DNA of 22,143 nt from a virus (IMGVR_UViG_2703718843_000010), one strand, 5' to 3'; counted from the first letter of the stretch, positions 1,051-5,355 are shown. Program-made: numbers and translations. The notes: a model not told the origin generated them from the letters alone.

Positions 1051-1371
1051 TTAACCAGTTTGTGTCTCTGAGCGGTCTGATCCAGTTGACTCTGGCCCAA
1101 TGTGTGCGAGGGCCGGTGCGATTTGACCAGCTTGAGGGGCGGTCTTATCAGTCATTAGCCAGAGCGTATATTTTGCAAAACGGGGGTGTTGTGTGATCTT
1201 CAACAAAATTTCACTACCAACGCCTTCTCTTCTCCCCATCTCGTAATGCTTTTGAGTACCTGCCGGAATACCTGTCAATTCAAAGAATTGAGTTCTGGAT
1301 AGCCCTTCAGCATCCCTAATTGCTCGAATTTTTTCCCCAATCCCGCTTGACTGGGTCTCATTTGATACCAT
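1051..1371 (-). CDS. C: Immunity repressor, P2 C-like
   Basis: 106 aa from ATG at 1369-1371 with SD GGAGAAGGA upstream on the minus strand. C-terminal part FAKYTLWLMTDKTAPQAGQIAPALAHIGPE resembles remembered P2 C (FTKYTLWFMT...GQIAPALAHFG). The track ORF extends upstream only via a TTG at 1428, which I do not accept as the start. Confidence 0.85.
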   Translation of the reverse strand: MVSNETQSSGIGEKIRAIRDAEGLSRTQFFELTGIPAGTQKHYEMGRREGVGSEILLKITQHPRFAKYTLWLMTDKTAPQAGQIAPALAHIGPESTGSDRSETQTG

Positions 1372-1405
1372 ATCCTTCTCCTTAGTGGGTCTCAATTGAT
1401 ACCAT
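1353..1405. repeat. Imperfect 19-bp direct repeat GGGTCTCA(T/A)TTGATACCAT at 1353-1371 and 1387-1405, flanking the repressor RBS
   Basis: Read directly: 18 of 19 positions identical, 34 bp apart. Copy 1 contains the repressor start codon and first six codons; copy 2 lies just upstream. Confidence 0.8.
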
Positions 1406-1587
1406 TGCAACGAAAAGGCAACCGCCAATATAAGCAGTTACAAGCCGAAATAAGCGCCTAGCGCTAATGCGGAGATTAGCACAAATGAGTGGAAGACTTG
1501 AGCAGGGCAACAGAAGTGACGGAATCCATGTTGCTGAATTCCGCCGTAGTTATTTCCCAAATGGACGTTATGCGGGGACGGTTAAAA

Positions 1588-1824
1588 CTAGTGGCTCCGC
1601 TTCGGGGACAGTGAGGCGGCAAGTTCAGCTTTAGCAATGTATTGCTGAAGGAAGGTTACGGTGTCTTTTGCTTGCTCAACGGTTAAACCAGTAAACAGCT
1701 CACCAGCTTCTGGCAGTTTTGTCGGTGTAGCTAAGTGGTAGTGGAAGCGTAAGCAAGCCAGATCATTAGCAACGAGGTACTCAAGTTCAGCAGGAATGTA
1801 GATAGGTACTTCTTTCTGAGACAT
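1588..1824 (-). CDS. Hypothetical protein (78 aa) between repressor C and cox, same strand as C
   Basis: ATG at 1822-1824 preceded on the minus strand by AGGAG at 8-nt spacing; protein MSQKEVPIYIPAELEYLVANDLACLRFHYHLATPTKLPEAGELF... has no motif I recognise. P2 itself has no gene at this position. Confidence 0.5.
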   Translation of the reverse strand: MSQKEVPIYIPAELEYLVANDLACLRFHYHLATPTKLPEAGELFTGLTVEQAKDTVTFLQQYIAKAELAASLSPKRSH

Positions 1825-1919: not shown

Positions 1920-2201
1920 ATGACAGACAAAGAGTTAGAGGGGTTCATTGAAGTGCGTCACGCTGTTGACGCGGTTCCATACCCAAAATTTGCCGAATTG
2001 ATCGGTAAGAAGCCCGCCACAGTTAAGAGCATGATTGAAGACGGTAAGTTGCCGATCATCCCGTGGAAGAACCCGGAAAGCCTGGGCGCCCGCGCTGAGA
2101 ACTGGATCTATATTCCTGAGTTCAACCGCGCAATGCGAGACGCCTACTACAACCGTCCGAAAGAACAGCGCGATGCTTGGTTGCTGTGGATCGGTCTTTG
2201 A
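1920..2201 (+). CDS. cox: Cox-like excisionase / early-operon regulator
   Basis: 93 aa; PYPKFAELIGKKPATVKSMIEDGKLPII...NWIYIPEFN...RPKEQRDAWLLWIGL resembles remembered P2 Cox (IPYQEFAKLIGKSTGAVRRMIDKGKLPVI...RPKEIRDGWLMWLGL). First rightward gene, facing the repressor side. Confidence 0.85.
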   Translation: MTDKELEGFIEVRHAVDAVPYPKFAELIGKKPATVKSMIEDGKLPIIPWKNPESLGARAENWIYIPEFNRAMRDAYYNRPKEQRDAWLLWIGL

Positions 2202-2938: not shown

Positions 2939-3151
2939 ATGACCAGACGTGAACAATATAGTTTCATTTTGCATGTTCTTTTACCTGCTATCGAAAATGA
3001 AGGGTTAACCATTAAAACCCGCCGTGATGGTGAGTTAACCCTTTCTGCCAGTGGGTCTGTAGCAACCAATTTTATAAGCAATCTGCGCCAGCACTGCATT
3101 GAAGAATTGCAGCGCCCTTCTATTCCAGCTTCCCATTACGGAGTCCTATAA
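2939..3151 (+). CDS. Hypothetical small protein (70 aa) immediately upstream of dam
   Basis: ATG at 2939 with GGAGG at 8-nt spacing; its stop (3149-3151) is one base before the dam ATG. Confidence 0.5.
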   Translation: MTRREQYSFILHVLLPAIENEGLTIKTRRDGELTLSASGSVATNFISNLRQHCIEELQRPSIPASHYGVL

Positions 3152-3152
3152 A

Positions 3153-4124
3153 ATGATCCGCCCGTTCATCAAATGGGCAGGGGGTAAAACCCGTGTCCTC
3201 CCTGACCTGCTGCCGCATCTTCCTAAAGTCGACTGCCTGATCGAACCATTCGTAGGCGGTGCATCGGTATTTCTGGCGACTGAATACCGCCGCTATGTGC
3301 TGGCTGATATCAACCCAGATCTTATTAACCTGTATCGGGAAGTCACCCGTTACCCGGACTTAGTGATCGATGCGGCCCGCGAACTGTTCAACAGTAAGAA
3401 CAACCCGCAGGGATACAACGAAGTCCGCGCCGCGTTCAATAAGCAGGTGGGTACGGTAAAAAGCGGTGGGTTGCGTTATGGCGCTGAAATGGCGTGCATT
3501 ATGCGCGCTGCTCAATTCCTGTATCTGAATCGCCACGGTTATAACGGCTTATGCCGATACAGCCGGAAGACCGGCTTTAACGTGCCGTTTGGCAAGTATA
3601 AGAGCGTCTACTTTCCTGAAAATGAAATCCGCCTGTTTGCCGAAAAGGCCAACGATACAAAGGCAATATTTCTTTGCGCGCCGTTCCAGCGTTCTCTACA
3701 AGTCGTCACGGGTGGCGATGTTCTTGTTTACTGCGATCCGCCTTACCTGCCTGAAAGCAAAACAGCCGATTTTACCCAATACCACACCGAACCATTCACG
3801 GAAGACAACCACCGCCAGTTAGTCCAGGCACTGCTGGAAGTTAACCGTAAGCATGGCGTGAAGGTCGTCATTTCCAACAGCGACACCGAAGCCACCCGCG
3901 TGATTTATCAGCCCTTCAAGATGCACGAAATCAGCGTGCAACGTTCCGTCAGCACTGACAAAGACAACCGCCAGAAGGCCAAAGAAGTGATCGGCGTGCT
4001 GCCTGTCTGCGACTGCTGCGGGCGTTACGGCGGCGGTTGCCCTGATTGTGGCGCCGTGATGGGTGATGCGACTTACAACGCGATGGTTGCGGCGGGCACG
4101 TTTGACGATCTGGAGGCTTTTTAA
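3153..4124 (+). CDS. dam: DNA adenine methyltransferase, Dam family (D12 class, likely GATC), with a C-terminal cysteine-cluster extension
   Basis: N-terminal FIKWAGGK, SAM-binding EPFVGGASVFL and catalytic DPPY, with overall collinearity to E. coli Dam as remembered. Extra tail VCDCCGRYGGGCPDCG. ATG at 3153 with GGAG upstream. Confidence 0.9.
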   Translation: MIRPFIKWAGGKTRVLPDLLPHLPKVDCLIEPFVGGASVFLATEYRRYVLADINPDLINLYREVTRYPDLVIDAARELFNSKNNPQGYNEVRAAFNKQVGTVKSGGLRYGAEMACIMRAAQFLYLNRHGYNGLCRYSRKTGFNVPFGKYKSVYFPENEIRLFAEKANDTKAIFLCAPFQRSLQVVTGGDVLVYCDPPYLPESKTADFTQYHTEPFTEDNHRQLVQALLEVNRKHGVKVVISNSDTEATRVIYQPFKMHEISVQRSVSTDKDNRQKAKEVIGVLPVCDCCGRYGGGCPDCGAVMGDATYNAMVAAGTFDDLEAF

Positions 4125-4444
4125 TGGCAAAAATCTATATCGCTGGCCCGATGAGCGGTTTGCCTGGATTCAATCGGCAGGCTTTTAACCGTGCAGCCGG
4201 GCACGTAGTGCGACGCGGAAACGTTGCCCTTAATCCGGCGATTTTGCCGGATGGATTAGAGCAGGCGGAATACATGGATATTTGCTTCGCCATGTTGCGT
4301 TGTGCTGACGGGATCTTCTTGCTGGATGGCTGGCAGCAGTCTGCCGGAGCTAAGGCAGAGCACGCGCTTGCTGAAAAGCTGGGTTTAGAAATTCAGTACC
4401 AAGTAATCGATCGGTGTAGCCGAAAGGCGGAGGGGCAGCAGTGA
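4124..4444 (+). CDS. DUF4406-like protein (nucleoside 2-deoxyribosyltransferase-like fold)
   Basis: 106 aa beginning MAKIYIAGPMSG...NPAILP, the hallmark N-terminus of the DUF4406 family. ATG overlaps the dam stop (TAATG). Confidence 0.75.
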   Translation: MAKIYIAGPMSGLPGFNRQAFNRAAGHVVRRGNVALNPAILPDGLEQAEYMDICFAMLRCADGIFLLDGWQQSAGAKAEHALAEKLGLEIQYQVIDRCSRKAEGQQ

Positions 4445-5355
4445 CCGCCTACTACAACGAAATCGACCCCTTCGCCGCGCAATACCTGCGCAACCTCATT
4501 GATGCCGGGCTTATCGCTTCCGGTGTTGTCGATACTCGTTCCGTTGAGGATGTAACCCCAAATGACCTTAAAGGATTCTCACAAGTCCACCTGTTTGCAG
4601 GTTTTGGAGGCTGGCCCCGTGCTTTGCGCGTCGCAGGATGGCCGGACGACCGCCCAGTATGGACAGCAAGTTGCCCATGCCAACCTTTCAGCCAGGCAGG
4701 CGAAGGAAAACAATTTGATGATGAGCGGCACCTATGGCCCGCCGTTCATTGGCTTGCAGGCCAGCAACGCCCTGTCGTTATATTTGGCGAACAGTCTTCA
4801 AGCAAAGATGCAGAAGTCTGGATCGACCTTGTACAAACTGACATGGAAAGTTTGGGCTATGCCTTCGGGGCGTCGGCGTTTCCGTCTGCGGGCGTCGGTG
4901 CGCCGCACATCCGGGAGCGTACTTACTGGCTGGCCGACTCCAACCGCGAGCAATACGAAGAACGCTTATCAGGATGCCGAGAAGGTGATCGCCAGGAAGC
5001 TGGCTGGTCGGCAGTCGAACTTACAGGGCTTTGCTTGTCTTGCGGGTTGGCCCACCCCTGCGGCGAGGGATGGAAAGGGCGGGTATCAGGGAGGAAGGAT
5101 GCGGCACGGGAAGCTGTCAACGGATACGCTGGATGTGACAGCGCAGATAGCAGGCCCGGCCCGGTTAACGGATTCTGGGGATCTGCTGACTGGCTCCTTT
5201 GCAGAGATGGAAAGTGGAGGCCAGTTAAACCCGGCCTTAAGCCTCTGGTTGATGGGGTTCCCTCCAGAGTGGGAAAACTACGCGCCAGCGGAAACGCCGT
5301 AAATATCTATGCAGCCGCAACTTTCTTAAAAGCCTACATGGAGATCGCGCAATGA
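4441..5355 (+). CDS. DNA cytosine-5 methyltransferase (phage-type); a second long overlapping frame is described in findings
   Basis: GTG start overlapping the upstream stop (GTGA). Motif I FAGFGG, motif IV PCQPFSQAG, GEQ-type motif VI region, motif VIII GAPHIRERTYWLA, motif X GNAVN...FLKAY. Stop overlaps the gene A ATG. Confidence 0.8.
   Translation: MTAYYNEIDPFAAQYLRNLIDAGLIASGVVDTRSVEDVTPNDLKGFSQVHLFAGFGGWPRALRVAGWPDDRPVWTASCPCQPFSQAGEGKQFDDERHLWPAVHWLAGQQRPVVIFGEQSSSKDAEVWIDLVQTDMESLGYAFGASAFPSAGVGAPHIRERTYWLADSNREQYEERLSGCREGDRQEAGWSAVELTGLCLSCGLAHPCGEGWKGRVSGRKDAAREAVNGYAGCDSADSRPGPVNGFWGSADWLLCRDGKWRPVKPGLKPLVDGVPSRVGKLRASGNAVNIYAAATFLKAYMEIAQ

Follow-up and report, generated by a model that had tools for sequence, protein, structure and literature searches.

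The stretch of viral DNA analysed here (IMGVR_UViG_2703718843_000010; 22,143 nt, referred to below as the window) carries at its left end the immunity region of a P2-like (Peduoviridae) prophage. Within this region, between the genes for the immunity repressor C and Cox, lies a minus-strand open reading frame (ORF) of 78 codons, here termed ORF78, which is a genuine gene of an uncharacterised family. ORF78 is probably a moron that is expressed in the lysogen from a portable cassette and silenced by the convergent early promoter Pe, and for its product a role in exclusion, defence or host modulation is probable. Morons, known from HK97, HK022 and lambda, are extra genes with their own promoter and terminator that are expressed from the prophage. 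The features of the region are collected in Table 1.

The reading frame set out in the original prediction is confirmed by the sequence, with the ATG at 1824–1822, a TAG stop codon at 1590–1588 and AGGAG at 1835–1831, a gap of 6 nt from the start. A length of 78 codons alone is within chance; that ORF78 is real follows from its conservation across relatives. A search of 5.8 billion proteins recovered 18 clusters of homologues (54–97% identity, 74–87 aa), all from Enterobacterales (Rahnella, Yersinia, Enterobacter, Escherichia, Serratia, Photorhabdus and Salmonella). A profile of the family run against 1.84 billion cluster representatives gave 11 matches and added nearly nothing; three of these are long repetitive proteins matched over the helix only, and the rest belong to the same family, which is narrow. 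Forty ORF78 loci were taken from genome and viral collections. Loss of the frame in related prophages had been named beforehand as one result that would speak against the gene; instead, the 24 distinct intact alleles, from P2-like prophages of Enterobacterales, have a median ratio of non-synonymous to synonymous substitution rates (dN/dS) of 0.047 over pairs with unsaturated synonymous divergence (pS). Overall dN/dS is about 0.05–0.15; compared with the window copy, it ranges from 0.03 to 0.19. Variable first, second and third codon positions number 54, 46 and 77, an excess of third-position variation, and AGGA or GGAG is kept at the Shine–Dalgarno position in all homologous loci. The invariant residues cluster in PAELEY, ACLRFHY and FTxLTxEQAxD. 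A frameshift or premature stop disrupts the gene in two lineages only, Erwinia tracheiphila (L010, L042 and L043) and Photorhabdus (L011, L044 and L045), which looks like decay in prophage remnants. The 5' element described below is still recognisable beside these disrupted copies.

The ORF78 product is small and soluble, lacks membrane features and most likely binds another protein. An AlphaFold (AF2) model of moderate confidence, with a predicted local distance difference test score (pLDDT) of 68, consists of a beta-hairpin (residues 13–28) and a long helix (residues 49–71). There is no match to a Pfam, PHROG or PADLOC family, and the Pfam and PHROG scans found no DNA-binding motif or family. 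The homology and structure searches proposed in the original prediction returned no known family or fold: the profile reached a best E of 1 against PDB sequences, and Foldseek gave no significant match in the PDB (best E 3.0) or BFVD (best E 0.26). By tblastn, ORF78 is not encoded in any isolated phage. As the protein is without sequence or fold relatives, its function has to be inferred. The small biofilm regulator BssS (PF13991) is similar in size, but the match (residues 19–68, E 0.15) scores 12.6 bits against a Pfam gathering cut-off of 27 and was not recovered by fold or profile searches either, and this identity was rejected. Matches to metagenome-assembled genomes (MAGs) of Clostridia (L012–L015), with 34–53% identity over 36–52 residues, were treated as spurious. 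A 68-aa cargo protein in the same kind of cassette (L074 in IMG/VR, motif LQITLEQAKELHSIL) gives a weak hhalign match to ORF78 (E 5.5e-4, probability 30%) and may be a very divergent relative; comparisons of the same type with two further cargo proteins were not significant.

The start codons of C (1371) and cox (1920) are separated by 548 bp, in agreement with the approximately 550 bp first reported, and the identities given to the two genes are borne out by their phrog_147 and PF10743 matches. Among isolated phages, the nearest relatives are Enterobacter phage phiT5282H and Salmonella phage SEN5. In phiT5282H the distance is 100 bp, which is the classical P2 layout without the ORF78 insert, and in SEN5 it is 884 bp, with a different insert that contains three other annotated ORFs. 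Escherichia coli SZQ1, like SEN5, has other genes at the same junctions. ORF78 lies in an insertion of approximately 435 bp that is missing from phiT5282H, so that the description of an extra inserted gene, co-oriented with C and int, holds. A three-way alignment of the window, phiT5282H and SEN5 reveals that sequence from C to approximately 1484 is common to all, including the palindrome, and that the inserts of the window and SEN5 both start inside cox, within its first ~33 nt. The left junction is a degenerate duplicate of these nucleotides, and a fresh copy of the cox 5' end (1920–1954) with a new ribosome-binding site follows the insert. The G+C content of the insert is 48.4% as against 53.9% for the window, although the values for C (47.4%) and the switch (45.1%) are just as low.

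The conserved sequence beside C contains the switch. A Pe-like promoter is predicted by the promoter scan (TTGACT at 1347–1352 and TATCCT at 1371–1376), with its start ~535 nt from the start of cox. Two 20-nt direct repeats, TGGGTCTCAWTTGATACCAT, at 1352–1371 and 1386–1405, are found nowhere else in the window and are presumed to be the C operators. Repressor C of the P2 type binds direct repeats at Pe, and a Pe-like promoter flanked by direct repeats matches the layout of P2-type switches (PMC1904263). The transcripts from Pe and from the repressor promoter Pc overlap by 35 nt in P2 and 82 nt in WPhi (PMC1904263); because these overlaps are just 35–82 nt, the start of Pc would lie no further right than ~1465. 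The palindrome AGCGCCTAGCGCT had been located correctly; it is also present in phiT5282H and is part of the switch rather than of the insert. Similarly, the 216-bp spacer between ORF78 and C (1372–1587) has the length originally given and includes the palindrome, but it is not empty: the switch, a terminator-like hairpin and the start of a candidate plus-strand ORF, orfX, lie inside it.

The switch shared with the empty-site phage (1347–1484) sits between C and the insert, which would place ORF78 upstream of Pc and outside the C–int transcript, as judged from homology and geometry. Genes of the Pc operon lie downstream of Pc, with C as the first, and this is not the arrangement of ORF78. ORF78 would thus need a promoter of its own. 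This speaks against the original prediction that ORF78 is part of the lysogenic transcription unit; that account also overlooked the orientation of ORF78, which is antisense to the Pe-to-cox transcript, and its membership of a family of cassettes.

Within the switch, just before C, there is a second terminator-like hairpin on the minus strand (1418–1441, GTAACTGCTTATATTGGCGGTTGC then CTTTTCGTTG). Its sequence is identical in phiT5282H and SEN5, and it overlaps a −10-like TATATT, a possible element of Pc. Three loci (L003, L019 and L021) have near-identical int/ORF78/cox backbones and three different C alleles, which are 86%, 100% and 65% identical to the window C. In E. coli matches, similarity begins at window position 1418. 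The exchange of C alleles and this edge of similarity suggest a breakpoint for immunity swaps inside the switch.

The approximately 75 nt upstream of the ORF78 start codon are conserved at every junction, in the arrangement GCCGGGATTTTTAGCCAYGCCCGGCGCRTGG-TATTCT-GGTGTTTCCACACAACCAGAAAGGAG-N6-ATG. The same 5' element precedes unrelated minus-strand ORFs in SEN5 (60 aa), E. coli 2013C-3033 (64 aa) and SZQ1 (79 aa). An exact scan of IMG/VR with the 22-nt core, TTTAGCCAYGCCCGGCGCRTGG, recovered 81 contigs. The first ORFs after the core form 27 clusters, approximately 20 of which look like real, unrelated proteins of 55–190 aa. These include a SieB homologue (L089 in IMG/VR; 186 aa, PF14163, E 5e-26) and a GhoS-like protein (L079 in IMG/VR; 93 aa, 22.7 bits against a cut-off of 21), and zinc ribbons are also recognisable among the cargo. 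Of 5426 complete E. coli genomes, 82 contain the element, in no case annotated, and it occurs in just 8 isolated-phage records. An annotated 38-aa coding sequence (CDS) of SEN5, SEN5_35 (L001:2656–2772), sits on the cassette core and promoter region and is probably a mis-called gene, and in Yersinia phage vB_YenM_42.18 the element lies under a feature annotated as 'replication protein'.

The Int, C, Cox and DUF4761 proteins of the window served as markers for mapping all ORF78 loci. The junction occupied by ORF78 varies (between C and cox, between cox and the DUF4761 gene, after cox, or after the DUF4761 gene), but in all loci mapped it is within the P2-like early region and co-oriented with C and int. 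The same rule applies to the wider family. Among 93 element loci, Int (59/59) and C (45/45) are encoded on the cargo strand and downstream of the cargo, while Cox (28/28), DUF4761 (46/46), Dam (30/30) and gpA (52/52) are encoded on the opposite strand. In each of the 93 loci the cassette lies between C and gpA, in antisense orientation relative to the early operon. There is, as a rule, one element per locus; in Trabulsiella guamensis ATCC 49490 (L009:1400–3250), three tandem cores at 1440, 1994 and 2947 lie between cox and C, so cassette arrays exist. The cargo of this array consists of a 68-aa gene, a pair of genes for 160 and 58 aa, and a homologue of ORF78 that is driven by the last element.

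The putative promoter of ORF78 within the 5' element is the extended −10 motif TGGTATTCT. It lies 22 nt upstream of the Shine–Dalgarno sequence, with a predicted start site near 1850 and a 5' untranslated region (UTR) of ~26 nt. The pattern TGnTAnnnT is present at fixed offsets in 64 of the 82 unique elements, with variation at the three inner positions (21 motif/offset variants), and persists where the hairpins have decayed, for example in L029 (TGATAATCT). In longer variants of the element, a hairpin in the 5' UTR begins at the predicted +1. At the other end of the cassette, most ORF78 loci have a clear hairpin terminator downstream of the gene, such as ACGGCGAAAT...ATTTCGCCGTTTTCTTT. The corresponding stem in the window (1545–1518, GGCGGAATTC...GGATTCCGTC) has a T tail weaker than those of its homologues. 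In addition, the core, the ribosome-binding site and codons 1–9 of ORF78 are enclosed by a 10-nt inverted repeat, TGTAGATAGG and CCTATCTTCA (1797–1806 and 1893–1902, 90% complementary), which ORF78 loci at other junctions do not share and which is probably due to chance or lineage-specific.

The core itself is found once in the window, with 0 copies expected by chance, and holds two mutually exclusive GC hairpins, hairpin i (GCCGGG/CCCGGC) and hairpin ii (CCACGC/GCGTGG). Hairpin ii (CCAYGC/GCRTGG) covaries, with 55 T-A, 27 C-G and 0 mixed pairs amongst the 82 unique elements, and hairpin i has the compensated variants GCCGGA/TCCGGC and GCCGAG/CTCGGC. A further stem, stem 2, forms between the T-rich tract that follows the core and the purine tract preceding the Shine–Dalgarno sequence; its compensatory variants elsewhere include TTCTGTT/AACAGAA, TTGTGGT/ACCACAA, CCTTATC/GATAAGG and TTTCTCG/CGAGAAA. 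Because all three structures are upstream of or across the −10, they would not be part of an mRNA that starts from it. There are three possible explanations. On the cargo strand, these structures may be a terminator or insulator upstream, at which the transcript of the previous cassette would stop in arrays; they may form in the early transcript, just before the ribosome-binding site of the next early gene; or they may have a role in DNA or single-stranded DNA. Internal G.U and A.C wobbles (21 and 26, respectively) indicate no preference of strand for the hairpins and stem 2. Folding z-scores of the element on the two strands are modest (−1.7 and −2.0), and a comparison of minimum free energies is ambiguous. 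Rfam 15 gave no match up to E = 10 in 1300–2000 and, over the window as a whole, none that reached gathering score, and the core sequence was not found in the literature searched.

Readings of the 5' element as a known motif were compared by eye with consensus sequences and were rejected. The half-sites of a LexA box would be spaced by 13 rather than 8, there is no fit to sigma-54 (−24/−12), sigma-32 or sigma-E promoters, and the Ogr-type TGT-N12-ACA is absent. There is just one poor match to the Cox box, consensus TTAAA(G/C)NC(A/C) (PMC3936717), where a minimum of four boxes is required. For a sigma-70 promoter upstream of the core, with a semi-conserved TTGAAT, there is no correctly spaced −10; hairpins i and ii are connected by a loop too short for an H-type pseudoknot; and there is no real match to repetitive extragenic palindromic (REP) elements.

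On the early strand, orfX (49 codons, with GGAG at 1471–1474) converges on ORF78, with an overlap of 47 nt at the 3' end of the latter. The first 11 codons are the degenerate copy of the cox 5' end. In all ORF78 loci a motif FRRxY(S/F)xxG is conserved, and the counterparts of orfX start just beyond the ORF78 terminator, run through it and overlap the 3' end of ORF78. Part of this conservation is the complement of the terminator stem. There is no family match to orfX, and its variable sites, just 6 among close relatives, are too few for dN/dS. The motif has weak similarity to the N-terminal part of a long DUF4761-family protein (BLASTP E 0.001), so orfX is perhaps a fragment of a gene, carried along with the cassette. 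A convergent early-strand ORF, often cargo-specific, is likewise found at the 3' end of the cargo in most other cassettes, and in some slots this 'partner' is simply the preceding early gene. The chances that orfX, a candidate gene, is translated are about even.

According to the explanation favoured here, the cassette sits in the early-operon leader, with the Pe/Pc switch on one side and cox on the other, facing against early transcription, and brings its own candidate signals: the double hairpin, the extended −10 TGGTATTCT, the Shine–Dalgarno sequence, the ORF and the terminator at 1545–1518. As there is no C operator nearby, the ORF78 promoter would be active constitutively in the lysogen, where C silences Pe. 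Once Pe is active, head-on polymerases would cross the cassette and antisense RNA would be made, and ORF78 would be shut down. This could restrict ORF78 expression to lysogeny without a dedicated regulator. The strict antisense rule is what this silencing model predicts and is hard to explain otherwise. Our best guess is that ORF78 encodes a prophage exclusion, defence or host-modulating factor, because loci of the same kind carry SieB and GhoS-like proteins and the interval between the integrase gene and gpA is a minor, though recognised, hotspot for defence, holding 8% of the defence systems of P2-like prophages (PMC13586616). The earlier suggestion of a position typical of lysogenic conversion or superinfection exclusion is thus still plausible, given SieB among cargo of the same type, although its premise of a lysogenic transcription unit is not supported.

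Several points weigh against this explanation. The −35/−10 consensus scan did not call a promoter for ORF78, because there is no −35, and in a locus with a longer variant the scan did not call the upstream hairpin as a terminator. TGnTAnnnT is not at the usual place in 18 of the 82 elements. A simple promoter model also fails to explain the most conserved part of the cassette. Since the T tract of the window terminator is poor, read-through towards C may occur. ORF78 has no relatives of known function, by sequence or fold, in Pfam, PHROG, PADLOC, PDB or BFVD, and the defence or exclusion role is an association, since a function can be recognised for just 2 of the ~20 cargo families. The reality of the gene and its insertion, the layout of the cassette, the rule of orientation and the conservation of the motifs are established, whereas promoter use and start site for every member of the family, termination, silencing by Pe and the role of the ORF78 protein are inferred.

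A wider view of the cassettes is possible, though we hold it only tentatively: the 31-nt covarying double hairpin, fused to a promoter, could be an RNA or single-stranded DNA device that confines expression to lysogeny and allows the ~20 cargo genes to move between phages in an integron-like manner. The device would be an insulator or switch, a processing site in the early transcript, or a site of capture or recombination. It is unlikely that ORF78 belongs to the lysogenic operon, either co-transcribed with C and int from Pc or, by read-through from its own promoter, providing a second, C-independent source of repressor and integrase. ORF78 shares its orientation with these genes, and some read-through is plausible given the weak T tail in the window, ACTTCTGTTG; yet the switch separates ORF78 from C and ORF78 is upstream of Pc, the homologues have strong terminators, the further terminator-like hairpin (1441–1418) precedes C, and ORF78 is also found far from C, beyond cox or the DUF4761 gene. 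A role in cis, in which the outward promoter and the 435 bp of leader damp leaky Pe-to-cox transcription and stabilise lysogeny, with the protein secondary, is rather improbable. The cassette does lie exactly between Pe and cox, facing Pe, and is antisense in 93/93 loci, and convergent-promoter interference is established in P2/186-type switches (PMC5001618 and PMC1904263). The ORF78 protein is, however, under strong purifying selection, cassettes downstream of cox cannot gate cox, and the cargo is diverse and includes real effector families.

ORF78 and orfX could instead form a two-gene module, in which ORF78 is an inhibitor or exclusion factor in the lysogen and orfX, as the first product of the Pe transcript, relieves it for the resident phage on induction (self-immunity). 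SieB/Esc-type self-immunity is a known precedent for such pairs of inhibitor and relief. The Shine–Dalgarno sequence and ATG of orfX in every ORF78 locus, the conserved FRRxYxxxG, and the convergent, often cargo-specific ORFs of most other cassettes are in keeping with such a module. It is nevertheless a doubtful one, as orfX may be a mere 5' fragment of a DUF4761-type gene, has no family matches and owes part of its conservation to the terminator stem, and as the partner in some slots is the preceding early gene. Both the cis effect on cox and the orfX partnership are plausible as additions to lysogen-specific expression of ORF78 or as rivals to it. The location in the immunity region, and a small size typical of modulators, would fit a regulator of the lysis–lysogeny switch, such as an anti-Cox or C modulator. 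This is very improbable: near-identical ORF78 alleles accompany three C alleles (100%, 86% and 65% identity), ORF78 is found at other junctions too, no DNA-binding motif or family was found in it, and the slot is interchangeable with unrelated cargo. That ORF78, short and without a database family, is a chance ORF deserves practically no credence and is already refuted by the frame kept in 24 alleles, dN/dS of ~0.05, the third-position excess, the conserved Shine–Dalgarno sequence and the restriction of disrupted copies to two lineages.

As with morons, ORF78 is present or absent at the same spot among close relatives and has, on sequence grounds, a candidate promoter motif and terminator hairpins of its own, and loci of this type also carry an exclusion protein as cargo. 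The lysogenic-conversion genes of P2 are old, tin and Z/fun. ORF78 differs in lying inside the early operon and strictly antisense to it, and not in the classical P2 hotspots, gpA–portal and the tail region. It also has a conserved structured 5' element in common with ~20 unrelated cargo genes, a kind of sharing not seen in ordinary morons. The early-operon location, the invariant antisense orientation and the shared structured 5' element are what is new relative to described morons and P2 hotspots; a description of the cassette system was not found in the literature searched, the coverage of which is incomplete.

ORF78 also resembles rexAB of lambda, hex of 434 and sieB of lambda and P22 in being small, adjacent to the repressor gene and co-oriented with it, and a SieB homologue is an alternative cargo. 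However, rexAB and hex belong to the repressor's own PRM transcript (PMC3564112 and PMC11077077), and ORF78 differs in being upstream of Pc with the switch between it and C. There is no sequence similarity between ORF78 and the products of rexAB, hex or sieB (Pfam, PHROG and PADLOC), and ORF78 matches none of the known defence or exclusion families (PADLOC models and SieB PF14163), SieB being the different cargo of L089. In switches of the P2/186 type (Pe/Pc and pR/pL), a second promoter faces the early promoter, as the ORF78 promoter would, and mutual exclusion of the two strands is likewise predicted; there, however, the second promoter drives the repressor, while here it would serve an accessory gene ~470 bp away, with interference as the presumed outcome.

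Integron cassettes are promoterless ORFs with a 3' attC, recombined at attI by an adjacent IntI. The cassettes described here likewise comprise many unrelated small ORFs with one covarying imperfect palindrome, in a uniform orientation and sometimes in tandem arrays. Here, by contrast, the element is 5' and fused to a promoter-like motif, several junctions are occupied, no integron integrase is involved and the neighbouring recombinase is the phage tyrosine integrase, so that the ORF78 cassette is not an integron cassette. Exchange of cassettes can be explained by homologous recombination in the conserved flanks.

The small early genes after cox include one for a DUF4761 protein. Further along the window, the early genes include those for a Dam-type adenine methylase (3099–4124) and a DUF4406 protein (4124–4444), with names taken from the annotation of the near-identical E. 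coli 81009 prophage; E. coli 0H26 also has a prophage of this type. A 304-aa ORF (4441–5355) contains a PCQPFS motif typical of cytosine-5 methyltransferases; if it encodes such an enzyme, there would be two methyltransferases in one early operon.

Table 1. Features of the immunity region and the ORF78 cassette, with positions counted from the first nucleotide of the window
Feature	Position	Strand	Basis or comment
Integrase	1–981	−	Tyrosine integrase, PF24624/PF00589
Immunity repressor C	1051–1371	−	phrog_147, E 2.4e-36; weak HTH_31 match
Conserved switch, Pe-like promoter and flanking repeats	1347–1405	+	Promoter scan, repeat search
Palindrome AGCGCCTAGCGCT	1453–1465		Also in phiT5282H and SEN5
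Left insert junction, degenerate duplicate of first 33 nt of cox	1485–1517	+	Three-way alignment
orfX, 49 codons, GGAG at 1471–1474	1485–1634	+	Shine–Dalgarno sequence and ATG in all ORF78 loci
Terminator-like hairpin GGCGGAATTCAGCAACATGGATTCCGTC, weak T tail	1508–1545	−	Scan and folding; 43 nt past ORF78 stop
ORF78 CDS, cassette cargo gene (78 aa; MSQKEVPIYIPAELEYLVANDLACLRFHYHL...)	1588–1824	−	ORF call and conservation of homologues
Shine–Dalgarno AGGAG of ORF78	1831–1835	−	6 nt to ATG
Stem 2, inverted repeat TTCTGGT-N11-ACCAGAA	1836–1860		Folding; between core and Shine–Dalgarno sequence, overlaps −10
Candidate extended −10 promoter TGGTATTCT	1857–1865	−	TG at 1865–1864, hexamer TATTCT at 1862–1857
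Cassette core GCCGGGATTTTTAGCCACGCCCGGCGCGTGG, GC-rich double hairpin	1863–1893	−	Conserved before unrelated cargo
cox, first conserved early gene	1920–2201	+	PF10743, E 1e-23; phrog_272, E 4e-39

P2 is a textbook example of a temperate phage, with an immunity switch that is considered compact and fixed. The Pe–cox leader and other junctions of the early operon nevertheless tolerate a backward gene, and form a shared docking site for small accessory genes. The covarying double hairpin at this site is a conserved nucleic-acid structure without an Rfam family. The ~20 cargo families, mostly orphans of 55–160 aa, are candidate exclusion, defence or host-modulating proteins, which can be found by the 22-nt tag. 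If expression is indeed confined to the lysogen by head-on transcription, which the strict orientation rule makes directly testable, the cassettes would represent a simple means of tying accessory genes to dormancy without a regulator.

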